Assembly: GCA_049688395.1 (NCBI GenBank)
Contig: JBAVKQ010000093.1
Span: forward strand, 2,775 to 66,774
Reading direction: 5' to 3'
DNA length: 64,000 nt
DNA from: Candidatus Nanopelagicales bacterium
GTDB taxonomy: Bacteria > Actinomycetota > Actinomycetes > S36-B12 > CAIYMF01
The stretch's first letter is position 1. Each line of letters opens with the position of its first letter. Shown one piece after another: positions 25,317 to 63,397 of the stretch. Under the pieces are notes generated by a model. It searched no databases, was not told where the DNA came from, and saw nothing but the letters and a program-made list of their open reading frames with translations. A program made the translations under genes and the position numbers.

Positions 25317-25340
25317 CACGGCCCACGGCGGGTGTCCGGG

Positions 25341-27321: not shown

Positions 27322-28062
27322 ATGGGCCGCATGCAGACACCCACGGATCTCGCCGATCTCTGGCGCAGCGCGCCCACGGTGGCCGTGCTCACCGGGGCGG
27401 GCATCTCCACGGACTCCGGGATCGCGGACTTCCGTGGCCCCAACGGACTGTGGACCCGCAACCCCGGCGCGCAGGCCATGTTCGACATCACCACCTACCT
27501 GGCCGACCCCGAGGTACGGCGCACGGCCTGGGCCAACCGTCGGCAGAACGCCACCTGGTCGGCCGAACCGAACCGCGGGCACCATGCCCTGGCCGAACTC
27601 CAGCGCGCCAGGCGCCTGACCACGCTCATGACCCAGAACATCGACGGCCTGCACCAGCGATCCGGGGCCACCGACGTCCTCGAACTGCACGGCACCATCT
27701 GGCAGATCGTGTGCATGTCCTGCGGCATGCGCTGGCCGACCCCCGAGATCCTGGCCCGACCGGAGCCCGACCCGCCCTGCGTTCTGTGCGGAGGCATCCT
27801 CAAGACGGCGACGATCTCGTTCGGCCAGGCCCTGGACCGGGCAGTACTCGAGGCAGCGTTCGACGCGGCCGCCGAGGCTGACCTGCTGGTGGCCATCGGC
27901 ACGTCCCTGCAGGTCAACCCCGTCGCCGGCCTGGCCGGGGTCGCCGAATGCCTGGCGATCGTGAACGCCGAACCGACGCCCTACGACCACGACGCTCAGG
28001 TCGTGGTGCGCGCGCCGATCTCCGAGGTCCTGGATGAGGTCCACGGACTGCTCTCGGGCTGA
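27322..28062 (+). CDS. cobB: NAD-dependent protein deacylase, Sir2 family
   Basis: GAGISTDSGIADFRG, TQNIDGLH, HG, and a Zn ribbon CMSCG...CVLCGG. Confidence 0.85.
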   Translation: MGRMQTPTDLADLWRSAPTVAVLTGAGISTDSGIADFRGPNGLWTRNPGAQAMFDITTYLADPEVRRTAWANRRQNATWSAEPNRGHHALAELQRARRLTTLMTQNIDGLHQRSGATDVLELHGTIWQIVCMSCGMRWPTPEILARPEPDPPCVLCGGILKTATISFGQALDRAVLEAAFDAAAEADLLVAIGTSLQVNPVAGLAGVAECLAIVNAEPTPYDHDAQVVVRAPISEVLDEVHGLLSG

Positions 28063-41207: not shown

Positions 41208-42041
41208 TCACCCGCCGGCGATGATGCCGGCGTTCAGGCTGAGCAGGAGGGAATCGATCAGCGCGAGCAGCATCACGATCCTGAACAGGTGCCGGCCACC
41301 GGATGCGGTGGCGGCCAGGACCGAGACCGCGGTCAACCCTGCCAGGATGGCGACCGCGGTGGGCAGGTGCAGGTCGAGGTTCCCCACGAGCAGACCGGTG
41401 GCCGCCAGTAGCGCGACGACGGCCAGCTGCGCCGACAGCCGCCCCCCCAGGCGCCCGACCAGTCCCTGGCTGTCGGTTGCCCGGTCGGTGTCGATGTCGG
41501 GGATGCCGTTGGCCAGATGCGCGCCCACCCCGAGCAGCGACAGGGTCGCCACCGCCCACCCGGCCGGCGGCTGCGGCGGGGTCAGCCCGTAGGTCAGGAA
41601 CGGGGCGAACAGCCCGAAGGACACCAGGTAGGGCACGAACGACCAGATCGTCGTCTTCAGCCACAGGTCATAGGCCCAGGCAGACGCGACGGCGACGATG
41701 TGGGCGGCGCCACCGATGACCCCACCGGCCAGGAGCGACAGCGGGATGCACGCGAGGGCAGCGGTGCTCGCGGCCACCCACAGGCGGCGTTCGCTTACCA
41801 CACCGCGCACGGTGGGCTTGTCCCACCGCTGCGCGTGCCGGTCGCGCTGCGCGTCATGGGCGTCGTTGGCCCAGCCGACGGACAGCTGCCCGGACAGGAC
41901 GGCCAGGAACACGGCGAGGCCCCCGATCGGTCCTCGGCCCAAGGACAGCGCCAAGGCGGTGATGGCGACGGTGACCACGAGGGTGGGCCCGGGGTGACAG
42001 GCCGCCACCAGTCCGCGTACCTGCGCGTGGCGAGCAACCAT
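41208..42041 (-). CDS. UbiA-superfamily prenyltransferase
   Basis: About 8 TM helices. First Asp-rich motif NDAHDAQRD, and a second acidic patch IPDIDTDR. Confidence 0.75.
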   Translation of the reverse strand: MVARHAQVRGLVAACHPGPTLVVTVAITALALSLGRGPIGGLAVFLAVLSGQLSVGWANDAHDAQRDRHAQRWDKPTVRGVVSERRLWVAASTAALACIPLSLLAGGVIGGAAHIVAVASAWAYDLWLKTTIWSFVPYLVSFGLFAPFLTYGLTPPQPPAGWAVATLSLLGVGAHLANGIPDIDTDRATDSQGLVGRLGGRLSAQLAVVALLAATGLLVGNLDLHLPTAVAILAGLTAVSVLAATASGGRHLFRIVMLLALIDSLLLSLNAGIIAGG

Positions 42042-42047
42042 CGTCGG

Positions 42048-43067
42048 CTACCCGGCGATCCGGTCGACGATGCGGGTGAACGTACGCGGCAGCGCCTGCG
42101 CGGTGGGCACGATCATCGGGCGCAGGCGGGGCCTCGCGCCGACCCAGAGCAGGGTGTTGGTCAGGTTCCGGTAGGAGCGGGTGATCCGCGTCCACGCCGC
42201 TTCGTAGCGCTGGGGCTGGTCGGTCACGATCGCCTCGACGGCTGCCTGCGCCTCGGCGAAGCCGACCCGCAGCCCTTCCCCGGTCAGGGCGTCGACGTAG
42301 CCGGCCGCGTCGCCGACCAGCAGCACCCGGCCCGCCACCCGCGCGGTGCTGGACTGCCGCAACGGCCCGGCCCCCCGCAGCGCACTGGCCTGCGCGGCCC
42401 CGGACAGGTGGTCGGCCAGGCTCGGCAGGCTGGCGATGGCCGCCGCTAGGTCCAGCGGCCTGGGTCCCAGCACCGCCACCCCGACCGTGTCCGGGCTCAC
42501 CGGCGTGACGTACACCTCCTGCCCGGGCAGCCAGTGCACCTCGACCAGGTCCGACCAGGGGGCAACCCTGAAGTGCTGGCGCAGGCCGAACCGGCGCGCC
42601 CCAGCAGGACGGGCTGCCAGACCCGTTGCCCGGCGCACAGTGGAGTGCAGCCCATCGGCTCCGACCAGGTAGCGGGCGTCCATTCCTGCAACATGCACCC
42701 CCGCGGCGGTCTGCGTCACCCCGGACACTGCGCCCGGGTGGATGCGGACCCCGACCTGGCGGGCCCGGTCCAGCATGGCTTCGTGCAGGGTCGTCCGCCG
42801 CACCCCGCGCCCGGGCCCGGCGCTGAACGTGGCCTGAGCCGCCCGCGCGCCCGACAGGTAGCGGATCCCCGTGAGGTCCACTCCCTGCGGGTCGATGCCC
42901 AGGGTGTTCAGCCGGGCCAGGGCCTGGGGCATCAGGCCCTCCCCGCACGCCTTGTCGATGGCCCCCGGCCGCGGTTCCACGACGACCACCTCCAGGTCGG
43001 CCATGGCGGCGTCGATCGCCGTGGCCAGCCCCACCGGCCCGCCCCCGGCCACGACCAGGTCGATCAT
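42048..43067 (-). CDS. FAD-dependent oxidoreductase (geranylgeranyl-reductase / SrsC-like hydroxylase family)
   Basis: ATG 43067 (MIDLVVAGGGPVGLATA, a GxGxxG motif) and a later GDAAGYVDALTGEG. Confidence 0.8.
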   Translation of the reverse strand: MIDLVVAGGGPVGLATAIDAAMADLEVVVVEPRPGAIDKACGEGLMPQALARLNTLGIDPQGVDLTGIRYLSGARAAQATFSAGPGRGVRRTTLHEAMLDRARQVGVRIHPGAVSGVTQTAAGVHVAGMDARYLVGADGLHSTVRRATGLAARPAGARRFGLRQHFRVAPWSDLVEVHWLPGQEVYVTPVSPDTVGVAVLGPRPLDLAAAIASLPSLADHLSGAAQASALRGAGPLRQSSTARVAGRVLLVGDAAGYVDALTGEGLRVGFAEAQAAVEAIVTDQPQRYEAAWTRITRSYRNLTNTLLWVGARPRLRPMIVPTAQALPRTFTRIVDRIAG

Positions 43068-43594
43068 CGAGACCCGGCCGGCAGCAGCTTCAGTGCGGCG
43101 TCCTCGGTGCGGATCCGGACCGCCATCAGGGCAGCGTTCAGCGTGGTGAACACCAGGGCGGTGACCCATGCCGAGCCGACCAGCGGCAGCGCGAACCCCT
43201 CGATCACGACCGCCACGTAGTTGGGGTGGGACAGTCGGGCGTAGGGACCGCGAGTCACCCTCGGCAGGCCGGGGACGATCACCACCCGGGTGTTCCACCG
43301 TGGCCCCAGCGAGGCGATGCACCACCAGCGCAGCGCCTGGGCGCCCAGCACCAGTATCAGCATCGGCACCGCCAGGGCGGCGATCATCTGCCGACCTGCC
43401 AGATGGACCTCGACCAAGGCCCCCACCAGCAGGCCCAGGTGCAGCACGACCATCGCCGGATAGTGCCCCCGGCCGTGCTCCTGCCCGCCGCGCTCGGCGC
43501 TCCAGCGCAGGTTGCGCTGGGAGACGATCAGCTCGGCGACCCGCTCCAGGCCCACGAGGACGATAAGCACCGTGAATACGGTGGTGCCGCTCAC
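43064..43594 (-). CDS. Isoprenylcysteine carboxyl methyltransferase (ICMT)-family membrane methyltransferase (SrsB-like)
   Basis: Membrane protein with LVTRGPYARLSHPNYVAVVIEG. GTG 43594 lies 4 nt after the PKS stop. Confidence 0.78.
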   Translation of the reverse strand: MSGTTVFTVLIVLVGLERVAELIVSQRNLRWSAERGGQEHGRGHYPAMVVLHLGLLVGALVEVHLAGRQMIAALAVPMLILVLGAQALRWWCIASLGPRWNTRVVIVPGLPRVTRGPYARLSHPNYVAVVIEGFALPLVGSAWVTALVFTTLNAALMAVRIRTEDAALKLLPAGSR

Positions 43595-43598
43595 CGGG

Positions 43599-44675
43599 TC
43601 ACCAGCGCAGCAGGACGAGTTCGGCACAGAACCCCGGGCCCAGGGCGATCAGCAGCCCGGGTGTCCCCGAATCGGGAGTCGGGGCGCCGTCACGGCCCTC
43701 GAGGGTGTCGGCGAGCACATGCAGGACCGAGGCCGAGGACAGGTTCCCGATGCGTGCCAACGACCGCCAAGTGACCCCCAGCTCGTCGTCGGTCAGACCC
43801 AGGGAGGACTCCATGGCCTCCAGCACCTTCGGGCCGCCCGGGTGACAGACCCAGTTCGCGATGTCGGGAACCTTCAGATCCTGATCGGAGAGGAAACCGA
43901 CGACGTCGTCCTCGAGGTACTGGGTCACGACCGTCGGCACGTCGGCCGACAGCACGAGCCGGAACCCGCTGCCGCCGACGTCCCAGCCCATGGTGTGCTG
44001 GGTGTCGGGATACATCCGGCTGCGCGAGGCGAGCACGCGAGGCCCGGTGATGCCCATCCGCCGCGCGCGGTCGGCTCCCACCATCACGACCGCGGCCGCA
44101 CCGTCACCGAACAATCCGCTGGCCACCACGTTGGGCATCGACACGTCCGCGTGCTGCAACGTCAGCGAGCACAACTCGATCGAGAGCAGCACGGCCACCC
44201 CGTCGGGATCGCCCAGCAGGTAGTCGCGGACCCGGGCGATCCCCGCCACCCCGGCCACGCACCCGAGGCCGAAGATCGGCAGGCGTTTGACGTCGGGACG
44301 CAGCCCCAACGCCGGCACGAGCCGGGCCTCCAACGACGGTGCCGCGATCCCCGTCACCGAGGTGGACACCACCAGGTCGACGTCCTCGGGCCTCAGGCCG
44401 GCCTTGGCCAGGGCGCCCCGGATGGCCTGCTCGCCCAGGTCCAGGCCCACCCGGATGAACACATCGTTGGCCGCCCCGAAGTCGTCGAGGTCGGGGTAAT
44501 CCGCCAGGTCGAGGGCCAGGTTCCGGCTGCGCACACCTGTGGCGGCATGGATCTTCTCGACCAGCGCGACGTGGCCACCATCGGGGGACACCATCGTTCC
44601 GAACGCCTTGGTGATCTCCTGCTGCGGGTAGGCGAACGGGGCCAACACTCCATGAACTCCGGCAATAACCACCAT
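43599..44675 (-). CDS. Type III polyketide synthase (chalcone/stilbene synthase family, SrsA-like)
   Basis: Catalytic Cys in FGLGCVAGV, His in VCHPGGPKV, Asn in IGNLSSASV. Confidence 0.9.
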   Translation of the reverse strand: MVVIAGVHGVLAPFAYPQQEITKAFGTMVSPDGGHVALVEKIHAATGVRSRNLALDLADYPDLDDFGAANDVFIRVGLDLGEQAIRGALAKAGLRPEDVDLVVSTSVTGIAAPSLEARLVPALGLRPDVKRLPIFGLGCVAGVAGIARVRDYLLGDPDGVAVLLSIELCSLTLQHADVSMPNVVASGLFGDGAAAVVMVGADRARRMGITGPRVLASRSRMYPDTQHTMGWDVGGSGFRLVLSADVPTVVTQYLEDDVVGFLSDQDLKVPDIANWVCHPGGPKVLEAMESSLGLTDDELGVTWRSLARIGNLSSASVLHVLADTLEGRDGAPTPDSGTPGLLIALGPGFCAELVLLRW

Positions 44676-48669: not shown

Positions 48670-49035
48670 TCAGCGTCCGGGCTCGGGGTCGGCGCCCCGC
48701 GCACGTTCGCGACGGCTCCTCGGCTCGTCGATGACTGTGACCGGTGGCCGCGCGGTGCCGGAGCGGTAGGCGGCCCGACCCAACGCCATGCCCGAAAGTG
48801 GGACGGTCGCGATGTGGGCCACCAGCACCAGCGCGACGAGGACGGCGTTGCGCGGGCTGGGCGCCATCGCCAAGGTTCCCAACAGAACCAGGATCACACC
48901 GAGGGAGGCCGCCTTCGACACGGCGGTGGCCCGGGTCAGCGGGTCCGGCAGCCGAAGCAGGCCGACCCCAGCCAACGTGACCAGACTGGCGCCGACGAGG
49001 ATCGCGGCAGCCCCGAGCCCCGCCCAGCCGCTCAC
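48670..49035 (-). CDS. mrpG: Mrp/Mnh monovalent cation:H+ antiporter subunit G
   Basis: VGLLRLPD...R.....K..SLG pattern, in the last operon position. Confidence 0.85.
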   Translation of the reverse strand: MSGWAGLGAAAILVGASLVTLAGVGLLRLPDPLTRATAVSKAASLGVILVLLGTLAMAPSPRNAVLVALVLVAHIATVPLSGMALGRAAYRSGTARPPVTVIDEPRSRRERARGADPEPGR

Positions 49036-49295
49036 TGGTCCTCCTCGGATCGATCGACGAGGCGCGCGAGGCCGATCGTGGCCAGGAACCCGATCAGCAC
49101 CGTGACAAGGGCGACGTCCAGCAGGGTCGGGGCCTCCAGGACGACCGACAGGATCGCGATCGCCGCCACCGCGGCGACGAACACCAGCTCCGCGGCGACC
49201 GCGCGGTCGGCCCCGCTGGGTCCCCGAGCGGCGCGCGTGACCGCGGCCAGGACACCGAGGGCCACCAGTGCCAGGGACAGGATCGGGATCAGCAT
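49032..49295 (-). CDS. mrpF: Mrp antiporter subunit F
   Basis: 87 aa with three TM helices. GPS..DR motif (ARGPSGADRAVA). Overlapping start/stop codons on both sides. Confidence 0.8.
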   Translation of the reverse strand: MLIPILSLALVALGVLAAVTRAARGPSGADRAVAAELVFVAAVAAIAILSVVLEAPTLLDVALVTVLIGFLATIGLARLVDRSEEDQ

Positions 49296-49660
49296 CAGCG
49301 ATCCGCCGATCCGGCGCTGCGCAGGACGCCGAGCACCCGGTCCTCCACGGCCACGAGCCCGGCGCGCAGTTCCTCGGGTTCCCGGGCGTACATGCTGTGC
49401 ACCCACAGTTCGGCCAGGTCGGGATCGACCGTGACGGTCAGCGTCCCCGGTGTCAGGGTGATCAGGGCCGACAGGGTGGCCACCTCCATCGGGGTGCGGC
49501 AGCGCAGGGGCAGGATCACGATCCCCGGGACCAGCCTCGGGGACGGCACGATGATGTCGCGGCCCACCTGGATCGAGGAGACCACGATCGCCCGCACCGT
49601 CCATGCCAGCAGCCCGACCAGGGCGCCGGCTCTGCGCACGCTCTCGACCACCCAGGTCAT
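49295..49660 (-). CDS. mrpE: Mrp antiporter subunit E (short form)
   Basis: Assigned from its position between D and F. LITLTPGTL motif. Confidence 0.75.
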   Translation of the reverse strand: MTWVVESVRRAGALVGLLAWTVRAIVVSSIQVGRDIIVPSPRLVPGIVILPLRCRTPMEVATLSALITLTPGTLTVTVDPDLAELWVHSMYAREPEELRAGLVAVEDRVLGVLRSAGSADR

Positions 49661-51249
49661 CGTCCCAACACCGCCTCGACGTAGGCGCTGGGATCGCCCA
49701 GGGTGGCGCCGGCCTGCTCGGTCAGGGCCAGCAGCGGCTCCGGGTACAGGCCCACCGCCAGGCTCAGGCAGGCCAGGATCAGCCCGGGGGCGACCAGGCC
49801 GGCCGACCAGCGCCGCTCGTGCGGCTCGGGGTCCGGCTCGGTGTCCGAATCCAGGGCCACCGGGGCCACGGTAGCCACGGCGGCACCTTCGGTCGCCGGC
49901 TCCGATTCGAAGCCCGGGGCGGGTTCATCGGGGGAACCCAGCGGCGGGCCCGCCTGCACCGCCTGCCTCGGGGCCTCGCCCCAGAACACCCCGGTCCCGA
50001 GCTTGAGCATCGACATCAGGGTGCCCACGCTGACCAGCAGGGCCGCGGCGAACACCAGCGGGCTGTCCGCCGCCAGAGCCGCGGAGAGGACCCCGAACTT
50101 GGCCCAGAACCCGGAGAACGGCGGGATGCCGGTCAGCGACAGGGCGCCGAACAGGAACGCCAGCGCCACCCAGCGGTGCTCGGCGGCGACCGCACCGAGG
50201 CTGCCGATCCGCCCCGTCCCGCGGCGGACCTCGACGGCTCCCACGCTCAGGAACAGCGAGGTCTTCACCACCGTGTGGTGCACGAGGTAGAACACGACGG
50301 CCGCCAGGCCGACCGGCCCGGCCAGCGCCAGCCCGACCAGGATGTAGCCGACCTGGCTGACCATGTGGAACGCCAGCACCCCGCGCACCGTGCCCTCGCC
50401 CAGGGCGCCGAGCACACCGACCACCATGCTCACCACGGTCAGGACGATGATGGTGTTCTCGACCACCGGCCCCGGGTCGTAGACCACGGTGACGACCCGG
50501 ATCAGGGCGTACACCCCGATCTTGGTCAGCAGGCCTGAGAACAGGGCGGTGATCGCGGGGGTGGCCTGGGGGTAGGTGGCCGGCAGCCAGGTGTGGGTGG
50601 GCACCAGCCCGCCCTTCATGCTCAGCGCCACCAGCACGACCGCCACGGCGACCCCGATCGCCGGGGTGGCCCCCGCCCCCGCGAGCGCGGCGAGGTTGAC
50701 CGTGCCCGCGGTGCCGTAGACGGCCCCCAGGCCGATCAGGAACAGGGTCGAGGCGGTCAGGTTCACCGTCAGGTACAGCCGCGCGGCCCGGATCGCCCCC
50801 GGGGTGCCGCGCCAGGCCAGCAGCACGTAGGAGGGCAGCAGGGCCACCTCGATCATGACGAACAGGTTGAACAGGTCCGCGGTCAGGTAGGCGCCGTAGA
50901 CCCCCGAGGTCATCATCAGCACCAGCGGGGCGAACAGCCGGTCCTGGCCGTGGCCGGTACGCAGCGCGAAGCTCACGCTGGCCAGCACGAGCATGCCGGA
51001 GACCACCAGCATCAGGGCGCTGAGCAGGTCGGCGACGAACGGGATCGCGATCCCGGCCGGCCACCCGGCCACCTGGGCGGCGATCACCGTGCCGTCGCTG
51101 GTGGCGGCCACCAGGGCACCTCCCCCGAGGATGACCAGCGCGGGGGTCAGCAGCACCAGGGCGCGGCCCACCGCCGGGGGTCGCACCACCAACGAGAGGA
51201 CCGCGGCCAGCAGCGGCCCGGCGACGAAGAGTGGGAGCCACGCGCTCAC
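49657..51249 (-). CDS. mrpD: Mrp antiporter subunit D (NuoN/ND2-like)
   Basis: Proton-conducting membrane transporter family (THTWLPATYP..., GIPPFSGFWAKF), with an acidic Pro-rich insertion near the C-terminus. Confidence 0.9.
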   Translation of the reverse strand: MSAWLPLFVAGPLLAAVLSLVVRPPAVGRALVLLTPALVILGGGALVAATSDGTVIAAQVAGWPAGIAIPFVADLLSALMLVVSGMLVLASVSFALRTGHGQDRLFAPLVLMMTSGVYGAYLTADLFNLFVMIEVALLPSYVLLAWRGTPGAIRAARLYLTVNLTASTLFLIGLGAVYGTAGTVNLAALAGAGATPAIGVAVAVVLVALSMKGGLVPTHTWLPATYPQATPAITALFSGLLTKIGVYALIRVVTVVYDPGPVVENTIIVLTVVSMVVGVLGALGEGTVRGVLAFHMVSQVGYILVGLALAGPVGLAAVVFYLVHHTVVKTSLFLSVGAVEVRRGTGRIGSLGAVAAEHRWVALAFLFGALSLTGIPPFSGFWAKFGVLSAALAADSPLVFAAALLVSVGTLMSMLKLGTGVFWGEAPRQAVQAGPPLGSPDEPAPGFESEPATEGAAVATVAPVALDSDTEPDPEPHERRWSAGLVAPGLILACLSLAVGLYPEPLLALTEQAGATLGDPSAYVEAVLGR

Positions 51250-51662
51250 GGGCCGACCTCCGGCTCGGGCCTCGGCTGCTCGTCCCTCGGTAGTTCTGGC
51301 CTCGGCAGGACAGTGGCCCCGGCACCGCCACCGGCACTGGCACCGGCATCGGCTTCGGCACCGGCAGGTTCGGGCTCCGCGCCCCGGGACACCAGGGACA
51401 GCAGGTAGATCGTCACGCCGAACGTGATCACGATGGCTGTGAGCACGAACGCCTGCGGCAGGGGATCCGCGGCGGTGCCGGGGTCGAGTCCGGGGCCGGT
51501 GATGGGTGCCGAACGCCGGTCGGTGACCCCGGCGGAGATGATCACGAGGTTCGCGGCGTGTCCGAGCAGGATGAAGCCCAGGATGAGCCGGATCGCGCCG
51601 CCACGCAGGACCAGCCAGGCCCCCACGGCGGCCAGCAGCCCCGCAGCGATCGCCAGGGTCAT
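51246..51662 (-). CDS. mrpC: Mrp antiporter subunit C (NuoK-like) with low-complexity C-terminal tail
   Basis: NuoK-like core (ILGFILLGHAANL..., PLPQAFVLTAIVI) plus an Ala/Glu/Pro-rich tail. Confidence 0.85.
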   Translation of the reverse strand: MTLAIAAGLLAAVGAWLVLRGGAIRLILGFILLGHAANLVIISAGVTDRRSAPITGPGLDPGTAADPLPQAFVLTAIVITFGVTIYLLSLVSRGAEPEPAGAEADAGASAGGGAGATVLPRPELPRDEQPRPEPEVGP

Positions 51663-54439
51663 GGCGTCACCTCGCTGCGCGCAGTGCTGCCGGCCTCGCT
51701 GCGTGCCCCGCCGAGGGCGTCGCTGCGGGCTTCGCGGTGCAGCCCGAGGTTGTCCAGGGCCGACTGGACCAGTCCGAGGACCACGAGGACCACGCCGAGG
51801 TCGAAGACCAGCGCGGAGGTCAGGTACCCCTCGGCCCCCGGCAGCGCGATTTTCATGGGCTGGCCGAACGCACCCGCCACGACCAGGCCCATCAGCCCGG
51901 TCCCCACGGCCAGCAGCAGTCCCGCCCCGACGATCAGGGGCACACCGGGCAGTCGGACTCGGATCCCGCAGGCGCGGGCCACTGCCAGGGCGGCTCCGGC
52001 CACCAGCCCGGCGATGAACCCGCCACCCGGCTCGTCGTGACCGCGCCAGAACAGCACCACCCCGGTGAGCATCAGCAGGGGCAGGACCACGATCGCCCCG
52101 ACCCGCAGGACCGCCTCCTCGCCGGGGCCGAGGGCGCCACTGCGGACCGCCCGGGTCGCCCCGGCGCCCCGCACCGCAACGACCAGACCGAGGGCTGCCG
52201 CGGCCAGGACGACGATCTCACCGAGGGTGTCCAGCCCGCGGAAGTCGACCAGGATCGTGTTGACGACGTTGCTGCCGCCCGTGGCCCGCTCGGCCTCGGC
52301 CAGGAAGTACTCGGAGACCGCCGATCGTTCCCGGCGCCCGGTGAACACCACCACGAGCAGGGCCGTGAGCACCCCGACGGCCCCGGCACCCAACGCGTGG
52401 GCCGGGCCGACGCGCCGAGCGGCCCGATCAGGCAGGCCCGCCAGGACCGGGGCGGCCACGACCACGGTCAGGATCTCCACGAGCAGCAGGGTGAGTGCCA
52501 CGTCGGGGGCGCCCAGCAGCATCAACCAGGCCGACAGGGTCACTCCGATCACCCCGGCCAGGACCAGGGCGGCCAGCCCGTCGCGCACCCGGGCCATCGC
52601 CAGCACGGCCGGGACGAGCACGGCCAGCACCAGCCAGTCACCGGGCTGAGCAATGCCGGGCACCACCGGGCCGAGGTCCGAGATCACCAGCCAGCCGACC
52701 CCCGTCAGGCCGAGCAGGAGCACGAGGACGCCGGCCAGATGCGTGCCCGCGGTGTCCACGCGGCTGGTGCGCGCGACCCGGGCACCGAACCGCAGTGCCG
52801 CGTCCCACCCGCGGTCGAAGACACCGGGGCCGCGCAGGTCCGGGGCCTCCCAGTGCGCCATCTCGGCCAGTCGGTTGCGCCGCAGGTGCCCCACGATACC
52901 CAGACCGATCGCGGTGGCCGATAGCCCGAGGGCCAGCGAGAAGCCGTGCCACAGGGCCAGGTCCGCCTCGGTCCCGGCGAACCCGGTGTCGACCACCGCC
53001 CGGGTCACCAGGTCGTTGAGCAGGAACGGCGCCAGACCGAGGACCAGTCCGAGGATGGCCGGGACAGCTGCCGGTGCCAGGAAGAGCGCGGACGGCTCGT
53101 ACAGGTTGCTCTGGCGCAGGGGGCCGGCGAACGTCCCGGCGATGATCCGCGCGCTGTAGGCGAAGGTCAGCGCCGCGCCGATCACCGCCACGCCCACGGC
53201 CAGGTTCCCCGACCATGCCGCGCCCTGCGCCCAGCGCGCCTCCCCGGTGCCAAGGAAGGCGTAGAACGCCTCCTCCTTGGCCACGAAGCCGACCATCGGC
53301 GGCAGCCCGGCCATCGACATCGCAGCCAGGGCGGTCAGCCCGGCGGTCACCGGCATGACCCGCCACAGGCCGGACAGCTGGCGGATGTCGCGGCTGCCGG
53401 CCTCCTTGTCGATGATGCCCACCAGCATGAACAGCGTCGCCTTGAACAGGGCGTGTGCCGCGGCGAGCACCGTGGCCGCGGCCAGGGAGGCCGCCGTCCC
53501 CACCCCGACGAGGGCGACCATGAGACCCAGCTGGCTGACGGTGGAGTAGGCCAGCAGCGCCTTGAGGTCGTTCTGCTTGAGAGCCTGGTAGGCGCCGAAC
53601 ACGGCCGTGGACAGGCCCACGCCCATCAGGGTCAGGTGCCAGGCGGGGGCGTCGGCGAACAGTGGGGAGAACAGCAGCAGAAGGTAGATGCCGGCCTTGA
53701 CCAGCGATGCGGCGTGCAGGTAGGCGCTGACCGGAGTGATCGCCACCATTGCCCCGGGCAGCCAGAAGTGGAACGGCAGCTGGGCGGACTTCGTGAACGC
53801 GGCCAGCACCACGAGCCCCCCGACCACGCCGAGCTCGGAGCCGGTCAGCGCCTCCGGCGCCACGGCCAGGACGGTGGCGATGTCGCTGCTCCCAGTACGC
53901 ACGACCAGCAGCACCACCGCCCCCAGCAGGGCCAGTCCACCGCCCGCCGTCACGAACAGCGCTCGGGTCGCCGGCCGGGAGCCGGTAGTGCCCTGGCCCG
54001 CGATGAGCAGGAAGCTGCTCAGGGTCGTGAGCTCCCAGAAGACCACGAGCACGACGAGGTCACCGGCCAGGACCAGGCCCAGCATCGCCGTCGCGAAGAC
54101 CGCCAGGATCCCGTACAGGCGCCCGTGGTCCTGGCCGGGCGAGAGGTACTGCGGGGCGTAGCTCAGCACCAGGGCCCCCACCCCGAGCACGAGCATGGCG
54201 AACAGCAGGGCGAGTCCGTTGAGGCGCAGCGTGAGGTCCACTGCGAACGACGGAACCCAGCTCCACGACTGGGTGACCGTTTGGCCGGCAAGCACCTCGG
54301 GGGCATCGACGAGCAGCAGCCCCGCCGCCGCCAGGAATGCGCCGGCCAGCGGGTACCCGGTCGCCCGGCCCAACAATCTGCTCAGCAGCGGCACCAGGGC
54401 AGCAGCACCCGCCATGAGCACGAGCGCCGCGATCAACAC
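51659..54439 (-). CDS. mrpA: Mrp antiporter fused subunit A/B (NuoL-like)
   Basis: 926 aa, GTG start. NuoL-like N-terminal two thirds (FTKSAQLPFHFWLPGAM) and an MnhB-like C-terminal region (GGSNVVNTILVDFRGLDTLGE). Confidence 0.92.
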   Translation of the reverse strand: MLIAALVLMAGAAALVPLLSRLLGRATGYPLAGAFLAAAGLLLVDAPEVLAGQTVTQSWSWVPSFAVDLTLRLNGLALLFAMLVLGVGALVLSYAPQYLSPGQDHGRLYGILAVFATAMLGLVLAGDLVVLVVFWELTTLSSFLLIAGQGTTGSRPATRALFVTAGGGLALLGAVVLLVVRTGSSDIATVLAVAPEALTGSELGVVGGLVVLAAFTKSAQLPFHFWLPGAMVAITPVSAYLHAASLVKAGIYLLLLFSPLFADAPAWHLTLMGVGLSTAVFGAYQALKQNDLKALLAYSTVSQLGLMVALVGVGTAASLAAATVLAAAHALFKATLFMLVGIIDKEAGSRDIRQLSGLWRVMPVTAGLTALAAMSMAGLPPMVGFVAKEEAFYAFLGTGEARWAQGAAWSGNLAVGVAVIGAALTFAYSARIIAGTFAGPLRQSNLYEPSALFLAPAAVPAILGLVLGLAPFLLNDLVTRAVVDTGFAGTEADLALWHGFSLALGLSATAIGLGIVGHLRRNRLAEMAHWEAPDLRGPGVFDRGWDAALRFGARVARTSRVDTAGTHLAGVLVLLLGLTGVGWLVISDLGPVVPGIAQPGDWLVLAVLVPAVLAMARVRDGLAALVLAGVIGVTLSAWLMLLGAPDVALTLLLVEILTVVVAAPVLAGLPDRAARRVGPAHALGAGAVGVLTALLVVVFTGRRERSAVSEYFLAEAERATGGSNVVNTILVDFRGLDTLGEIVVLAAAALGLVVAVRGAGATRAVRSGALGPGEEAVLRVGAIVVLPLLMLTGVVLFWRGHDEPGGGFIAGLVAGAALAVARACGIRVRLPGVPLIVGAGLLLAVGTGLMGLVVAGAFGQPMKIALPGAEGYLTSALVFDLGVVLVVLGLVQSALDNLGLHREARSDALGGARSEAGSTARSEVTP

Positions 54440-54521: not shown

Positions 54522-55307
54522 TCATCCCGGGCGCACCGCGACCATCCGGTGCAGCGACACCGGCACCACCCGCCCGGGCCCGGCGAGGCGGGCCAGGCGC
54601 GCCGCGGCGAGCTCGCGGCGAGCGTGTGACACATGGGGCAGGTAGAGCGCCTCGACAGCCAGGCGCGCGTCGGCGGAGGTGGCCAGCGGGTGGGCGAACC
54701 GCGCCGCACCCGTGCTGAGGACACGCATCCCAGCGCCGGTGATCACCTGGCCGAGTCCCCGCCCGGTGACGCGTTGGGGCAGCTCGGGCAGGTGCCGCAG
54801 GGCCAGCAGGAGCGGGGCGACGACGCGCAGGTCGCCTGCGAGCAGGGGGCCGCTGACGGGGCGGATCGCGGCGAACGTGCCCCCGGGTCGAAGGACCCGG
54901 GCGACCTCGGCCATCGCCGCGCCGATCGGTCGCAGCAGCATGATGGCCATCGAGCAGACCACGACGTCCAGCGACCCGGACGGCACGGGTAGGGCCAGGG
55001 CGTCAGCAGTGAGCACGTGGCCCCGACCCCGTTGCGCGGCCACCCCGAGCTCAGCGGGGGAGAGGTCGATGCCGAGGTAGTCCGAATCGGCGAACAGCGG
55101 CTGCATCGGGGCGCTGCCGCACGCGATGTCCAGCACCCGGGCCGGACGGATCGGGACCGCGTCGCGCAGCCACCGGTAGGGGTCCCCGAACTCGGGGTGC
55201 CGTGACCCGGACAGGAGTTCCTCGGTGATCCCCGGATGTTCGGCGTGGAACCGAGCCAGGTAGCTGGTCCACGGGTCTGCGGCTCGCTGGTCTGCGGGCC
55301 TGATCAC
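54522..55307 (-). CDS. Class I SAM-dependent methyltransferase
   Basis: Motif I VLDIACGSA. Post-I region LGIDLS. VARVLRPGG also present. Confidence 0.8.
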   Translation of the reverse strand: MIRPADQRAADPWTSYLARFHAEHPGITEELLSGSRHPEFGDPYRWLRDAVPIRPARVLDIACGSAPMQPLFADSDYLGIDLSPAELGVAAQRGRGHVLTADALALPVPSGSLDVVVCSMAIMLLRPIGAAMAEVARVLRPGGTFAAIRPVSGPLLAGDLRVVAPLLLALRHLPELPQRVTGRGLGQVITGAGMRVLSTGAARFAHPLATSADARLAVEALYLPHVSHARRELAAARLARLAGPGRVVPVSLHRMVAVRPG

Positions 55308-55355: not shown

Positions 55356-56171
55356 CTATCCGGCCAGGGTGCCGGCGAAGACCTGCCAGGCCAGCAGGGA
55401 CTTGGCCACCAGGCTCAGGGTGATGTAGGCCCGTTCCCCGACCAGGTAGTCCGCCCAGCGCCCCACCTGCTTGTACTGCAGGTACTGGGTGACGGCGAAC
55501 ACGTTGAAGAACAGGAACAGCGACACGATGATGCCGTACACGAACGCCGGCGGCTCGGCCGAGGACGTCGACCCCGGGGCCACCACGAAGAACGCGATGA
55601 TCAACCACGGCACGATGCCGGTCATGGACCCGAAGATGAACGGCAGGAACCCGCCGCCGGGCTGCTCGTAGACCTCCTGCAGCCACCCGAAGAGGATCAT
55701 CGCCGCGTTCACCGCGAAGATCGCCGCGAGGGCCGCGACGTCGGTCAGGCCGGTGATCTGGGCGATCAGCACGATCATCATCGACGAGGTCAACGCGTAC
55801 TCGACCCACCGGGCCCGATTGCGCTGCTCGGCCAGGTCCGCGGCATATCCCCGGGACCACACCGTGGCCACGATCAGCAGCGCCAGGCCCGACAGGGCCA
55901 GGAAGCTGGCGACAGCCAGCCCGATCGGGGTGTTCAGCAGCGTCACCGGATCACCGGGCGCGGTCCCTGGCGGGCCCTCGAGGTAGGCCGCGGTGACCGG
56001 CAGGGTGAAGCCGTTGGACAGCGCGACCACGGCCACCGCCTGCGCGAGCAGGATCAGTCCCACGATGATGTTGTACCGGCGCAGTCCGGCGAGGCGACCC
56101 GGCTCGATCGGCACGGTCGCGGTGGGGGAGTCCGGCATTGGGCTGCCGGCAGGTGAGGGGTTCATGTCCAT
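55356..56171 (-). CDS. Heliorhodopsin
   Basis: Seven TM helices with family-diagnostic blocks: RWVEYALTSSMMIVLIAQI, ILFGWLQE, GIVPW, APGS, FVYGIIVSLFLFFNVFAVTQYLQYK, GERAYITLSLVAKSLLAWQVF. The Lys codon is at 55401..55403 and the Glu codon at 55800..55802. The start is ATG 56171 or 56165. Confidence 0.88.
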   Translation of the reverse strand: MDMNPSPAGSPMPDSPTATVPIEPGRLAGLRRYNIIVGLILLAQAVAVVALSNGFTLPVTAAYLEGPPGTAPGDPVTLLNTPIGLAVASFLALSGLALLIVATVWSRGYAADLAEQRNRARWVEYALTSSMMIVLIAQITGLTDVAALAAIFAVNAAMILFGWLQEVYEQPGGGFLPFIFGSMTGIVPWLIIAFFVVAPGSTSSAEPPAFVYGIIVSLFLFFNVFAVTQYLQYKQVGRWADYLVGERAYITLSLVAKSLLAWQVFAGTLAG

Positions 56172-56252
56172 TACGCTAGCCCAACGCTGGCCCCGGCACC
56201 CCCGCACCGCGGACCCGGCGGTGCGGGGGTGCGCAGATCTGCGCCGTGCCGG

Positions 56253-56468
56253 TCAGCCCTGCTGGGGCAGCGGGCGAGTGGAGATCCCGAGCACGGAGTA
56301 CAGGGGGCAGTAGCCCGAGACGGCGGTCCAGCCCGCCATCCCGGCCACCCCGAACAGGCCGACGCCCAGCGGGTTGAACACCCCGCCGAGCGCAAGACCC
56401 GTGCCCAGCGCGGTCACAGCGATCCCGCCGCGGATGACGCGGTCGAGGTTTCCTTCGTTCTTGGTCAT
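56253..56468 (-). CDS. DUF2892 (YgaP-like) small membrane protein
   Basis: ATG 56468 follows aaggag. NLDRVIRGGIA... has two TM helices and ends ...SGYCPLYSVLGIST, typical of DUF2892. Confidence 0.7.
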   Translation of the reverse strand: MTKNEGNLDRVIRGGIAVTALGTGLALGGVFNPLGVGLFGVAGMAGWTAVSGYCPLYSVLGISTRPLPQQG

Positions 56469-56519
56469 GGCAGCTCCTTGGTTTTCGTGCCCGGCAATGG
56501 TGTATCCGCTCACCACAAC

Positions 56520-57533: not shown

Positions 57534-57630
57534 CTGCTCAGGGTTGCACAGGGCCGCGCACTTGGCGCCCGAGCGAGGAGCCGACGACCCCGAATCGCGC
57601 CATCCGTCGGCGCTGTGGGTCCCAGGCCGC

Positions 57631-60108
57631 TCAGAGTCGTGGGTCGACCGGCTCGGACTCCAGGGCGAGCACCGCGAAGACCGACTGGTGCACCGTCCAG
57701 AGCGGCTCGTGGTCGACGAACGCGCTGAGGGCTTCGAGACCCAGGCCGTGCTCACTCAGGGCGAGGTGGCGCTTCCTGCCCAGATGCCGGTCGCGCAGCA
57801 CGTCCAGCGAGTCGGTGTAGTCAGGTCCGTAGATGATTCTCAGGTACTCCCGGCCACGCACCTCGATGCCGGGTTGGATGCGTCCCTGGGTCAGGTGCGC
57901 GGGCTTGACGACCATCCATTCGCCGCCGGCGGCAGTCAGGTCGAGCCACCACTGCGTCGCCGCGTCGCGTTGCGCGCGCGAGGCGAGATCGACGAAGCGG
58001 TGGCGCGTGGGGGTGATCAGGTCGCCGGTCACCGCGGCCAGCGCGGCGAGGTGCCACTCGTGGGGCTCGGTGAGCGCCAGCGCGCGGCCCTCGGCCGCCA
58101 GGATCTGGAACGGCGCCAGAGTCACCCCCTCGAGCCCGTCGGTCGGCCCGACGTACGCCGCGTAGGCGGCACGGAACGCCTGGGCGTTGGCGAGCCTGCC
58201 CTGCGTCCTGGCGGCCAGGTGCCCCACGTCCAGGCCGCGGGCCGCGGCCTGCTCGAGGACCGCCAGCGCTTCGGGAAGGGCATGACGGGCGGCGGCCCCG
58301 ACCGAGGCGTACTGCGACGTGATCACATCGACCGCCTTGGCCGACCACGGCAGCAGCTCGCAGTCCAGAGCCAGCCAGTCGGTGTCCAGCGACTCGAACA
58401 GCGCAGCCGTCGTGACGCGGAGCTGATCGACCAGCGCCGCCATGTCAGCGAAGAACGGGCGACCGGTGCGGGTGTAGACCACGCCGGTCGTACCGTCGCC
58501 GACCCCGAAGCGACGCTCGGCAGCGGCCTGGTCCCTGGCGAGGACGGCGATGGCTCGGGAGCCCATGTGCTTCTCCTCGCACACGACGCGCGTGGCACCC
58601 CAGCCGGCGTACTCGTCGAAGGCCTGCTCCGGGTGTTCCAGGAATCCATGGACCTGGGAGGTCGCGACCGGCGACATCGTCGGGGGCAGGTAGATCAGCC
58701 AGCGCGGGTCGACCGCGAACCGACTCATCACCTCCAGGGCCGCCGCAGCGTTCTCCTCGGGGATCTTCACCCTGCCTGCGTGGGCCGTGTCGAGCCAGCG
58801 GGTGCCGGCGACGTCGTCGATCTCGAGTACTGATGGCTCGCGGTCCCCGCCGGCGGCGGCCAGGGGGCGGATCGGCTCCTACCCCTCGCGCTGCGCCGGG
58901 ACCGAGACGAGATCGCGTTCGGGGTAGCGCAGCGCTGTCAACGAGCCACCGAAGACGACCCCGGTGTCCAGGCAGATCGTGTTGTTGACCCACTGGGCCT
59001 CGGGCACGGGGGTGTGCCCGTAGACGACGGTCGCCCGGCCCCGATACTCCTGGGCCCAGGGGTAGCGGACCGGCAGGCCGTACTCATCGGTCTCCCCGGA
59101 GGTGTCGCCGTAGAGCGCGAAGGATCGCACCCGACCAGAGGATCGACCGTGGTAGGACTCCTCGAGCCCGGCGTGCGCCACGACGAGCCTTCCCTCGTCG
59201 AGGACGTAGTGGCTGATCAGCCCGTTCATGAAATCGAGCGCGCGCACGCGGAACTCGCCCGGTTCGCCGCTCAGCTGGGTGAGCGACTCGGCCAGCCCGT
59301 GCGAGACGGTCACCTTCGATCCCCGCAGTGCACGCACGAGCTTCGCCTCGTGGTTGCCCGAGACGCAGAGCGCGGTGCCCGACTCGACCATGCCCATCAC
59401 CAGCCGGAGCACCCCGGGCGTGTCCGGGCCACGGTCCACGAGGTCGCTGACGAACAAGGCCTGGCGTCGGTCGGGGTGCGTGGCGCCCACTGCGAGGTCC
59501 CCGTCGTAGCGGATCGCCCACCCGAGCGCGGTGAGCAGGGTGCGCAGCTCGGCCGCGCAGCCGTGGATGTCGCCGACGATGTCGAAGGGACCAAGGAGGT
59601 CGGTGCGGTCGTTCCACGGGCGCTCGCGAACGATCTCGGCCGACTCGATCTGCTCGATTCCGCGCAGGACGCGCACACGACGGAAGCCCTCCTTGCCGAG
59701 TCTCCCGAGCGAGCGTCTCAGATCGCGCGCCTGGCGCGACACGACATGACTGCCGAAGTCGCGATCGGGTCGCGTCCGGTTGCGCTCGACGGCCACCGAC
59801 TCCGCGACGTCGATCACGATGGCGTCGACGAGCGAATCGTGGCTGCGGGCCAGGTCGATCAGCGCGGATCGGGCCGCTCTCTGGAGGTTGGTGGCATCGA
59901 CCACGGTCAGCAGTCCCCGGCGCAGCCGGGTGCCGTCGATGTAGTGCAGGACGTCGAAGGCATCCGCGGTGGCCGACTGATCGTTCTCGTCGTCGGCCAC
60001 CAGGCCCCGGCAGAAGTCGCTGGACACGACCTCGGTCGAGGCGAAGTGGGCGCGCGCGAAGGTCGACTTGCCGCTGCCGGACACCCCGACCAGAACGATC
60101 AGGCCCAT
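57631..60108 (-). pseudogene. pnkp: Polynucleotide kinase-phosphatase/ligase Pnkp, interrupted by one in-frame TAG (58879..58881)
   Basis: 58879..60108 encodes the kinase (GVSGSGKST) and calcineurin-type phosphatase (GDIHGC, DLVDRGPD, GNHE). The same frame continues after the TAG into the ligase domain (EEKHMGSR, through 57631). The frame is open across 58771..58878. Confidence 0.85.
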
Positions 60109-60142
60109 CGCGGGAACGGTGACTCGAGACGTGCGCAGTGCC

Positions 60143-61551
60143 TCAGATATCGTCGCCGCCGGCCCTGGTGAAGATCGCCATCACGGTGGGCGTACCACGC
60201 CGCTCGTCGAGGTCCCCGATGCCGCGTCGCTGGACCGAGTAGCCATAGGACGCGGCAACACGGTCAGACCATCGACCGAACTGCGCACGGGTCCACTCGA
60301 AGCGGTGGTCCGGGTGCCGCAGGCCCACCAGTCCCTCGTAGAGCGCGTTGTACTCGCGGTTCGGGGTCGTCACGATCACTGATCCCGGTCGCGCGGCGCC
60401 GAACACGATGTGCTCCAGCGCTGCCAACCGCGAGGGATCGACGTGCTCGATCACCTCCATGAGAACGGCAGCCTCGAAGCCGGCGTAGCGCTGGTCCTGA
60501 TAGGTGAGCGCGCCCTGGAACAGGTCGATACGTTCGGACTGCCGCTCACTCATCCGGTCGACGTGCAGCCGCCGGGCCGCATGCTGAAGCGATCGCATGG
60601 AGACATCGCTGCCCGCGACCCTGGTGAACGACGGGTCCTTCACCAGGCGTTCGAGGAACTGACCGGACCCGCAGCCGAGGTCGATGACCGACCGGGCCCC
60701 GAGCTCGCGCAGCACCCCATGGACGGCCTCGTGACGCTGGGTGTTGAGCGGGATCCGCTGCTCCGCGGAGCGCAGGACCTCCTCGTCGTCAGCAGGCTCG
60801 ATGGTGACCTGGACCTCGTCGCCGAGCTCGGCCAGTCGCGCGAGCGCCACCCGAGTCAGACCACCGGCCCGGGCCAGGTAGCGGCGGGTGATCAGGCCTT
60901 GTCGGGATGGCTGGCCAGCCAACCCGCACCGGAGCGCAGCAGCTGGTCGGCCTCGTCGGACCCTGCCAGTAGTGCTTGGACTCGTCCAGGACGGGCAGCA
61001 GCACGTGCAACTGGCTCAGCGCATCCGCGAGCCGGACGACGCCGGTGAAGCGAAGCCGGATGTAGCGCGAGTCGCCCCAGTCGGCGAACGCCTCGTCGAG
61101 CGCGATCGGCTCGGCGTCCACGGTCAGCCCAGCGGCTCGAAGACGCGATGCGCGATGACGGCGCCACCGCGGCACGGCAGCACCGGGATCACGATCTCCA
61201 GGGCGATGGCCGAGTCGGCCAACACCTGCCTTGCGGTGCAGCGGCCACTGCGCGGTCCGGAACACGTCGGCCAGCGCAACGCCCAGCAACGACGACGCGG
61301 AGTACGGGCGGTCGTTGACGTACTGGGCGAGGCTGAAGTCCGGAGCGTTGCGCGCCCGCGATCGCGCCAGCCGGACCGGATCCACGTCCAGCATCAGCGC
61401 GACGGTGCACCGCTGCGCACTGGCCTCGGGATAGACGACCGTGGCCGTGCCGAACGCCTGCGGGAACTCCGGCCCTCCGGTCGGGGTGCTTGTGCAGGAG
61501 GTAGCCCAGGTCGGTCGCCGGCTGGTGGGTGGTCGTCACGATCAGGAGCAC
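60143..61551 (-). pseudogene. hen1: RNA 3'-terminal 2'-O-methyltransferase Hen1; N-terminal half disrupted by about five frameshifts, methyltransferase half intact
   Basis: Hen1-like segments are read in three frames: VLLIVTTTHQPATDLGYLLHKHPDR / EFPQAFGTATVVYPEA...QYVNDRPYSASSLLGVALADVFRTA / SGRCTARQVLADSAIALEIVIPVLPCRGGAVIAHRVFEPLG / TVDAEPIALDE...LPVLDESKHYW / SDEADQLLRSGAGWLASHPDKA / LITRRYL...VIDLGCGSG...EVIEH. Confidence 0.8.
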
Positions 61552-61678
61552 GTGCTCAGTGTGCCCGAGAGCGCAGCGGGGGACCGGCGTCGGTCCGTCG
61601 GGTGGTCGGGCGGCGTCGGGCGGTCGGGCGGTCGGCGCGTGGACAGTCGCAGTGCCACGCGGATCGTAGGCTGGGGGC

Positions 61679-63397
61679 ATGTCGCCACGCCCCTATGAGG
61701 TTCTGCCCGGCCACCACGGGGGCAGGATCAAGGTCTCGGTGAGCGGCAGCGTGCTCCTGCGCATCCCGCGCCTGAACCGCGGCACCGCCTTCACCCTCGA
61801 GGAGCGGGAGCGGTTCGGCCTGATCGGGCACCTGCCCTCGGGGGTGACCCCGTTGGAGGCCCAACTGCACCGGTCCTACAACCAGTTCCTGCGCGCGGAG
61901 ACCGACCTGGACAAGTTCGCCTTCCTCTCGGCGCTGCGCGATCGCAACACCGTGCTGTTCTACCGGCTGCTCAGCGAGCACCTCGAGGAGATGATGCCGA
62001 TCGTCTACACCCCCACGATCGGGGCGGCGATCATGGAGTTCAGCCAGTCCTACCAACGCCTGCACGGGGTGTTCCTGACGATCGACACCCCGGAGCAGAT
62101 CGAGCGCTCACTGCAGGGCCAGGGCCGCAACCCCGAGGACGTCGACCTGCTCATCGTCACCGACTCCGAGGGCATCCTCGGCATCGGCGACCAGGGGGTG
62201 GGCGGCATCCAGATCGCCCTGGGCAAGAAGTCCCTGTACACCGCTGCTGCGGGCATCGACCCGAACCGGGCCATCGCGATCGTCCTGGACGTGGGCACCG
62301 ACAATCTGGCCCTGTTGTCCGATCCGCTCTACATGGGCCTGCGGCACAGCCGCATCCGCGGAGCGCGCTACGACGACTTCCTCGAGGCGTTCGTCACCGC
62401 GGTGACCACCGTGTTCCCGCACGCGATGATCCACTGGGAGGACTTCGGCGCCGCCAACGCCCATCGCGTGCTCGACAGGTATCGTGACCGGGTCTGCACC
62501 TTCAACGACGACGTGCAGGGCACCGCGGCCGTGGTCGCTGCTGCGGCCCTGGCCGCCGTCGGCTCCCAGGGCGGGCGCCTGCGCGACCAGCGCATCGTCA
62601 TCCACGGCGCAGGGACCGCCGGCGTCGGAGTCGCGGACCTGATGCGCGACATGATGATCAACGAGGGCGCCACAGCCCAGCAGGCCACTGCCGCCTTCTG
62701 GGGGCTGGGCAGTCGTGGGCTGCTCACCACCGCGCTGGGGGACCGGATCCGGCCCTTCCAGCGGCCGTACGCGCGCCAGGCCTCGGAGACCGACGCCTGG
62801 GCGCTGGACGTCGAGGGGCACATCGGCCTGGCCGACGTGATGCGCAACGTCAGGCCCACCATCCTCATCGGGACCTCGGGCCAGCCCGGGGCCTTCACCG
62901 AGCAGATCGTTCGCGAGATGGCCGCGCACGTGGACCATCCGGTGATCATGCCGCTGTCGAACCCCACCGCCCTGGTCGAGGCCACCCCAGCGGACCTGCT
63001 GACCTGGACCGAGGGTCGGGCGCTGATCGCCACCGGGTCGCCGTTCCCCGCGGTCCAACTCGCCGAGCGCGAGTACCGGATCGCCCAGGCCAACAACGCA
63101 TTCGTGTTCCCCGGCCTGGGCCTGGGCGTGGCTGTCTGCCAGGCCACCCGCGTGACCGACGCGATGATCGCCGCGGCCGCGGAGGCGGTCGCCGGGCTCG
63201 CCCACGTGGATCGGCCGGGGGCCTCGCTGCTGCCCCAGGTCTCCGAGTTGCGGATGGTGTCGGCAACGGTCGCGATCGCGGTCGCGCAGGCCGCCGAACG
63301 CGACGGTGTGGCCACGCGTGCGCTGGACAACCCCGTGCAGCAGGTGTTCGACGCCATGTGGACGCCGGTCTACCCGGAGCTCATCCTCGACCGGTGA
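61679..63397 (+). CDS. maeA: NAD(P)-dependent malic enzyme
   Basis: LNRGTAFT, VYTPT, ITDSEGILGIGDQG, and GAGTAGVG, the NAD-binding motif. Confidence 0.92.
   Translation: MSPRPYEVLPGHHGGRIKVSVSGSVLLRIPRLNRGTAFTLEERERFGLIGHLPSGVTPLEAQLHRSYNQFLRAETDLDKFAFLSALRDRNTVLFYRLLSEHLEEMMPIVYTPTIGAAIMEFSQSYQRLHGVFLTIDTPEQIERSLQGQGRNPEDVDLLIVTDSEGILGIGDQGVGGIQIALGKKSLYTAAAGIDPNRAIAIVLDVGTDNLALLSDPLYMGLRHSRIRGARYDDFLEAFVTAVTTVFPHAMIHWEDFGAANAHRVLDRYRDRVCTFNDDVQGTAAVVAAAALAAVGSQGGRLRDQRIVIHGAGTAGVGVADLMRDMMINEGATAQQATAAFWGLGSRGLLTTALGDRIRPFQRPYARQASETDAWALDVEGHIGLADVMRNVRPTILIGTSGQPGAFTEQIVREMAAHVDHPVIMPLSNPTALVEATPADLLTWTEGRALIATGSPFPAVQLAEREYRIAQANNAFVFPGLGLGVAVCQATRVTDAMIAAAAEAVAGLAHVDRPGASLLPQVSELRMVSATVAIAVAQAAERDGVATRALDNPVQQVFDAMWTPVYPELILDR

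Follow-up and report, generated by a model that had tools for sequence, protein, structure and literature searches.

The hen1-pnkp cassette placed, hen1 first, on the minus strand (61551..57631) of the analysed window, a 64-kb stretch of DNA from a soil-type actinobacterium with a G+C content of 70.8%, was found to be orthologous to the canonical Pnkp-Hen1 system but decayed, with five small indels disrupting the N-terminal half of hen1 and an in-frame amber codon interrupting pnkp. This RNA-repair cassette was probably caught in the course of natural decay, in which Hen1_L, the N-terminal domain of Hen1, would have died first, and pnkp would have been held under constraint until the amber codon arose. 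It would thus represent a known system in ordinary decay, with a modest hint that its unbroken parts were useful for longer.

The hen1 pseudogene (60143..61551, minus strand) extended from its native GTG start at 61551 to its native stop at 60145-60143, and its frame-corrected sequence encoded 470 aa, with no internal stops. When the joined Hen1-like pieces (470 aa) were searched against 5.8 billion proteins, the best match showed 84% identity over 100% of the query, and the top matches, named "3' terminal RNA ribose 2'-O-methyltransferase Hen1", came mostly from Nocardioides and other Nocardioidaceae, most of them being exactly 470 aa long. Two intact Hen1 proteins, one of 470 aa (P0014) and the closest one (P0001, ~84-85% identity), were used as queries for ungapped tblastn against the window, which covered all 470 residues of hen1 by six colinear segments lying, in order, in frames 2, 0, 1, 0, 2, and 1. 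On the minus strand, these segments corresponded to 61551-61477 (residues 1-25), 61469-61251 (28-100), 61249-61127 (102-142), 61124-60960 (144-198), 60957-60898 (200-219), and 60895-60146 (221-470). The junctions between them (61476-61470, 61250, 61126-61125, 60959-60958, and 60897-60896) agreed with all five frame switches that the initial annotation had proposed, and all of them fell inside Hen1_L. The alignment of intact Hen1 to the window, which had been suggested as a check, showed the N-terminal similarity to be colinear, and the Pnkp-ligase-associating Hen1_L profile (PF12623) was matched end to end (profile 1-242/242, 367.7 bits) by corrected residues 1-242, with the homology spread over five frames. 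Pfam matches to Methyltransf_12/23/25/11 followed at corrected residues 287-428. The ORF beginning at the native hen1 start stopped at 61189, and no single two-domain ORF of ~470 aa was present, while 78/78 orthologous hen1 genes from the fetched loci consisted of an intact single ORF. Judged from its sequence, the gene is a bacterial Hen1 homologue in which both domains are recognisable after frame correction, and full-length Hen1 would no longer be made by standard translation.

The lesions were resolved by DNA alignment of the window hen1 with eight intact orthologues. At the first one (61470..61476, minus strand, as for the following), seven bases replaced the six found in the orthologues (+1), accompanied by private substitutions at 61474 and 61471. 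The second (61249..61252) was a 2-nt deletion, in which the window read ACCG--CGCAGT and the orthologue ACCGCnCGnAGC, leading to the complete or partial loss of an Arg codon. The third (61124..61127) deleted a single G in a TGG (Trp) codon that is otherwise invariant, so that an in-frame TGA arose in the old frame. The remaining two were 1-nt deletions, converting GGTCCCGAC to GGTCCGAC at 60957..60960 and GACAAGGACCTG to GACAAGGCCTG at 60895..60898. In order, the shifts were therefore +1, -2, -1, -1, and -1, and no slippery motif was common to the five sites, whose contexts were short and G/C-rich, none of them lying in a long homopolymer. The positions given previously were accurate, although the second site turned out to be a 2-nt deletion and the first one a complex lesion.

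The methyltransferase half of hen1 was confirmed to be undisrupted, since it was contained in one open frame with 78-82% identity to intact proteins and kept both the SAM-binding and the metal-binding motifs. The open ORF (60143..60922, minus strand) comprised 259 aa counted from TTG 60922 and contained the sequences DLGCGSG, EVIEH, and HPDHRFEW. The internal start at 60922 had been described as an ATG, but the codon is TTG. On an assembled contig from the Logan collection, considered below, Prodigal called a methyltransferase-only gene of 235 aa from GTG 60850. In a genome this rich in GC, Shine-Dalgarno duplex energies calculated for the internal starts did not set true starts apart from the background. 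When the 259-aa TTG-start ORF and the malic enzyme were looked up as exact proteins, no match was returned, probably because their start codons differ from those of the gene calls on record. In a library of representative proteins at 50% identity, the methyltransferase-half query retrieved many matches shorter than 300 aa, which may be either fragments or true stand-alone methyltransferases, the two being indistinguishable in a library that carries no genomic context. No indels were found in the 750 nt of this half, against ~5.7 expected at the rate of the N-terminal half (P(0) = 0.003, conditional p = 0.022). The clean methyltransferase half may possibly yield a functional methyltransferase-only product; the ORF may also have been kept open to allow translational coupling into pnkp, or have remained clean by chance, at the 2-9% level.

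The pnkp gene was divided into two parts in the same frame. The 5' part (58879..60108, minus strand) encoded 409 aa, including the kinase (AAA_33, residues 3-135) and phosphatase (Metallophos, residues 174-369) domains, and the 3' part (57631..58878, minus strand) encoded the PNKP_ligase domain, the first start after the amber codon being GTG 58770. The resulting 379-aa ligase ORF matched PF16542 over its full length (profile 1-377/377, 522 bits). The kinase, phosphatase, and ligase domains occurred in the order of bacterial Pnkp and were colinear with intact orthologues (84.6%), yet the three modules were not encoded on one polypeptide because of the in-frame TAG. This stop (58881..58879, codon 410) was in frame with the downstream ligase ORF, and the proposal that an amber codon uncouples the ligase domain of pnkp was thereby borne out. 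The position was occupied by Tyr in 71/72 homologues from the fetched loci (TAC to TAG), and the preceding codon (58884-58882) specified Gly in the window against a conserved Trp in the homologues shown (W409G). At the DNA level, GAG TGG TAC GAG had become GAG GGG TAG GAG, through two private substitutions 5 nt apart. No suppressor tRNA was found in the 64-kb window. The pnkp ATG was placed 35 nt past the hen1 stop and presented a weak Shine-Dalgarno match (-2.5 kcal/mol). No indels were observed in pnkp, against ~19 expected if its drift had lasted as long as that of the Hen1 N-terminal half (conditional p = 4e-4).

It was then considered whether these lesions are carried by the genome itself. 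An exact-protein look-up of the 409-aa truncated Pnkp led to the Logan contig SRR28002599_92725 (4,053 bp), which corresponded to window positions 57929..61981 with 100% identity and no gaps, and therefore included all five indels and the amber codon. The same run yielded another Logan contig, 100% identical to 24320..27962. Logan builds its contigs out of k-mers of the reads and does not depend on the pipeline of the submitter. Since the contigs were 100% identical to the window, the lesions would be carried by accurate reads and not made by one assembler or polisher, even though both assemblies stem from one run, the sole public run with the organism, and are not independent samples. On the strength of the independence of Logan, and for contigs of this single run, the lesions are likely to be real mutations of non-assembler origin, and the earlier view that random assembly error is an unlikely explanation was reinforced by the recovery of all six lesions. 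The two Logan contigs were short (3.6-4.1 kb), although the window held no repeated 31-mers, which we take to indicate that coverage was low or uneven, or that the source was metagenomic. No publication was retrieved when the literature was searched for the run accession. In the collections searched, no same-species sequence was found beyond that run, the best result of the genome-contig scan being an 82%-identical MAG. A DNA-pattern scan of metagenomes across lesion 3, made for either allele, returned only a chance match and a 69%-identical hen1, and no second population of the species was found by it.

Concerning the distribution of frame disruptions, a codon-usage model was trained on the confident ORFs of the window and used to segment the full 64 kb into frames by the Viterbi algorithm. 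All five hen1 shifts were recovered in this way, even where a segment spanned only 70-74 nt, and no other frameshift was found in the 64 kb, every further same-strand frame switch being a normal stop-and-start gene boundary. Moreover, a Pfam check of neighbouring ORFs in the same frame revealed different families or none, and no pair resembled a split gene. Both analyses thus sustained the previous observation that no other frame disruption occurs across the window. The chance of five events falling within 576 nt was ~3e-8 within the 64 kb and 0.002 within the 3.9-kb cassette. However, the contrast between broken and clean parts inside hen1 reached only p = 0.022 for an a priori split and p = 0.09 for a scan statistic, so that the opposition between a broken N-terminal half and a clean methyltransferase half, stressed in the initial annotation, is real in its location but statistically modest. 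No compositional anomaly was detected across the operon.

Some other genes of the window deserve mention in this context. The 716-aa gene that had been cited among the undisrupted ones is probably the 717-aa ORF at 25341..27494 (minus strand). Most of this ORF runs antisense to a genuine plus-strand gene for a Na+/H+ exchanger (26016..27284), and only 25344-25916 scored as minus-strand coding. The 926-aa protein is an MnhA/MnhB-type subunit encoded in an operon for an mrp/mnh-type multisubunit cation/proton antiporter (48670..54439, minus strand). The small subunits of this antiporter lie in alternating frames, which look like frameshifts in a frame plot, yet they are normal overlapping genes. 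In another frame-switching gene pair of the window, the products, judged by eye, are presumably PRC-barrel proteins.

The evolutionary rates within the cassette were compared by relative-rate tests, in which lineage-specific amino-acid changes were counted in the window versus a sister genome, either L001 or L002, using outgroups more distant than the sister pair. For the Hen1 N-terminal half, the counts were 12 vs 4 against L001 (p = 0.08) and 17 vs 5 against L002 (p = 0.017), corresponding to ~3x the amino-acid change of the sister lineage, in small counts. The methyltransferase half displayed a weak, non-significant trend to acceleration (6 vs 3 and 9 vs 3, respectively), and none was seen in the Pnkp kinase (6 vs 6 and 8 vs 6), phosphatase (11 vs 10 and 13 vs 7), or ligase (10 vs 11 and 13 vs 13). 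Averaged Tajima-type tests agreed with these counts. Within the cassette, therefore, the comparative check pointed to the Hen1 N-terminal half as the only faster part, with the excess of amino-acid change that relaxed constraint in a decaying stretch would produce. The acceleration is modest, because the amino-acid counts are small and the substitutions at the DNA level are fairly even: the private substitutions of the window (51/1,882 invariant columns) were distributed fairly evenly along the cassette, similarly to those of other lineages, and were not clearly denser in the frameshifted stretch (9/303) than elsewhere (42/1,579). A first lineage count of nonsynonymous and synonymous changes, which suggested an operon-wide relaxation, was rejected, since several "outgroups" were closer to L001 than the window is. 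Private changes at conserved columns were also counted against the top 120 matches, but the isolated position of the window in that set confounded this count, which served as a lead only.

These results altogether bear on the statement that the sealing half of the repair system was selectively decayed. This holds for Hen1_L, which is broken, but it was overstated for the ligase domain of Pnkp, which matched PF16542 in full length, with no indel and no acceleration; this domain is itself intact and constrained, and is uncoupled only by one nonsense codon.

The nearest intact relatives were 82-85% identical to the window, and several of them were closer to each other than to it. At such a distance of the closest intact relative (~82-85%), the timing and order of the mutations are not directly reconstructable. 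In mutation accumulation lines of wild-type Mycobacterium smegmatis, 61 base substitutions and 19 indels were recorded, with rates of 5.78e-10 and 1.80e-10 per site per generation, respectively, and the NucS mismatch repair of actinobacteria leaves indels uncorrected (PMC7015689). In a rough calculation of our own with these rates, five indels in 660 nt corresponded to ~4e7 generations, and 9-18 excess nonsynonymous changes to ~3-7e7 generations. The agreement of the two clocks means that ordinary neutral drift explains the N-terminal half with no need for a special mechanism; with ~1 indel per 3 substitutions in the actinobacterial neutral spectrum, five indels alongside ~9-18 extra substitutions are in line with neutrality. 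If the M. smegmatis rates apply, the decay would have taken on the order of 1e7 generations.

A sequence of events can be proposed from these observations. Hen1_L, through which Hen1 contacts and activates the Pnkp ligase domain, would have lost its function first. It would then have drifted neutrally, gathering its five small indels together with some 9-18 additional nonsynonymous substitutions, and pnkp, ligase domain included, would meanwhile have been held by purifying selection. The change of Tyr410 to amber, together with the adjacent change of Trp409 to Gly, would finally have split the kinase-phosphatase from the ligase, an event that may be either recent or tolerated. As a result, neither Hen1 nor Pnkp would be made in full length, and Hen1-dependent sealing with 2'-O-methylation would be lost. 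The role of the Hen1 N-terminal domain as activator of the Pnkp ligase, on which the initial annotation also relied, is present in the literature, where this domain is described to lock the insertion domain of the ligase (PMC4411300), and Hen1-dependent sealing should therefore be lost. We infer both the order of events and the loss of repair function, the latter from published biochemistry.

Other explanations for this configuration were weighed against gradual decay. Tentatively, in a refinement of the idea put forward in the initial annotation, it could be supposed that, after the loss of Hen1_L, the Hen1-C methyltransferase (predicted to start at TTG 60922 or GTG 60850), the Pnkp kinase-phosphatase, and possibly a lone ligase are made as separate useful products; in a weaker variant, the 3' ORF of hen1 would be open only so that ribosomes ending at 60143 couple into pnkp. 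Such a retention of modules is consistent with the absence of indels in the methyltransferase half, but the hen1-only scan statistic was just p = 0.09. Likewise, the excess of amino-acid change was smaller in this half than in the N-terminal half, and the catalytic motifs were kept intact, although this half also trended to acceleration. The 235-aa methyltransferase-only gene called by Prodigal agrees with a separate product, whereas the internal starts are non-ATG and present no distinctive ribosome-binding signal, and the short Hen1-methyltransferase-like proteins of the library may be mere fragments. On the side of pnkp, neither acceleration nor indels were seen, and its weak Shine-Dalgarno match is compatible with a dependence on coupling. 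The natural Pnkp1-Rnl-Hen1 system has healing and sealing on separate polypeptides, which makes such an arrangement conceivable, but the Pnkp ligase has been reported to need the Hen1 N-terminal domain (PMC4411300), so that a ligase domain on its own would have no sealing activity. It is rather doubtful that the cassette persisted under selection as uncoupled modules, as a natural intermediate of domain fission; if it did, RNA end-healing and 3'-end methylation would be selectable independently of Hen1-activated sealing.

An origin of all five indels at once, in a recent and localised event such as an error-prone repair patch or the import of ~600 nt by recombination from a decayed allele, is unlikely, and such an event would carry no information on selection elsewhere in the cassette. 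The tight clustering of the indels (576 nt in a 3.9-kb cassette, p = 0.002), the complexity of site 1, where an insertion and two substitutions occur within 6 nt, and the location of the amber codon 5 nt from a second private substitution would all fit it, as would the otherwise uniform private substitutions along the cassette at the DNA level. Mycobacterial DinB and DnaE2 polymerases are reported to promote frameshifts, which also counts in its favour. However, the scan for a multi-nucleotide mutation signature was negative, closely spaced pairs of private substitutions being no commoner in the lineage of the window than in 11 relatives; neither a donor allele nor a templating repeat was found; and ordinary actinobacterial drift already accounts for the number of indels per extra substitution. 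A single clustered mutational event would nevertheless leave an identical present-day sequence, which counts against gradual decay. A sequencing artefact, in which locally poor reads gave false indels and a false stop, is very improbable. The lesions do lie in short G/C-rich contexts, which some platforms miscall, and the organism is represented in one run only, with short Logan contigs of ~4 kb; against this, the independent k-mer-based assembly repeated all six lesions, with 100% identity over two ~4-kb stretches, no further frame error occurred in ~60 kb of the same assembly, one lesion is a 2-nt deletion and none lies in a long homopolymer, and the excess of amino-acid substitutions affects the same half of hen1. 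Finally, a programmed recoding, in which full-length proteins would be restored by ribosomal frameshifting or transcriptional slippage at each of the five sites and by read-through of the amber codon, has a negligible probability. Nothing further than the absence of internal stops in the reconstructed frames speaks for it, and it would demand mixed shifts (+1, -2, -1, -1, -1) with no common slippery motif, in a gene that is a single ORF in 78/78 orthologues, and a window with no suppressor tRNA.

On the preferred reading of gradual decay, the appropriate annotation for the locus is a hen1 pseudogene followed by a nonsense-interrupted pnkp, and not a methyltransferase gene followed by two unrelated genes. 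It offers a single natural case in which the ligase-activating domain of Hen1 decayed and pnkp gave no sign of relaxed constraint. If confirmed in related strains, this would suggest a selectable function of Pnkp apart from Hen1-dependent sealing, the in vivo substrates of Pnkp-Hen1 being still unknown (PMC4411300). With one genome alone, it is a lead and not a discovery.

The genomic surroundings of the cassette were also compared. DNA homology to the five closest genomes, L001 and L002 among them, was confined to 61569..57630, that is, from 18 nt upstream of the hen1 start to the pnkp stop, and the flanks were unrelated, which indicates that the genomic context of the hen1-pnkp cassette changes from one genome to the next. 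Downstream of the cassette, at a distance of about 1.4 kb, a heliorhodopsin gene (55356..56207, minus strand) matched PF18761 in full length (1-242/242, E = 3.8e-94), and its neighbours encoded a YgaP-like membrane protein (56253..56516) and a class I methyltransferase (54522..55307). Farther away, the region 41208..44675 (minus strand) encoded a type III polyketide synthase with chalcone/stilbene synthase domains, a UbiA prenyltransferase, and an FAD-dependent monooxygenase, and may be a small secondary-metabolite locus.

In comparison with ordinary bacterial pseudogenes, the cassette shares multiple frameshifts, a raised amino-acid rate in the dead part, and a neutral ratio of indels to substitutions. 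It differs from them in that the decay is limited to a domain-sized stretch of the 3.9-kb cassette (p = 0.002) and that the partner gene pnkp presents no sign of relaxed constraint. The Pnkp1-Rnl-Hen1 system (PMC4411300) also has healing and ligase functions in separate reading frames, a split that the amber codon of the window mimics. However, the split is ancestral in that system, whereas in the window it results from a lineage-specific nonsense mutation, the orthologues being fused and carrying Tyr at the position. Moreover, the phosphatase of Pnkp1-Rnl-Hen1 belongs to another superfamily, and that of the window is a Metallophos domain, as in Pnkp; its Hen1 is intact, with an N-terminal ligase-activating domain, and that of the window is broken. 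The resemblance is thus superficial, and the locus does not belong to that system. With the canonical Pnkp-Hen1 system, in turn, the cassette shares the hen1-then-pnkp order and recognisable Hen1_L, methyltransferase, P-loop kinase, Metallophos, and PNKP_ligase domains, colinear with those of intact Nocardioidaceae orthologues at 82-85% protein identity, and it differs in the five indels of Hen1_L and the TAG at codon 410 of pnkp. It is to this system that the locus belongs, as a decayed orthologue.
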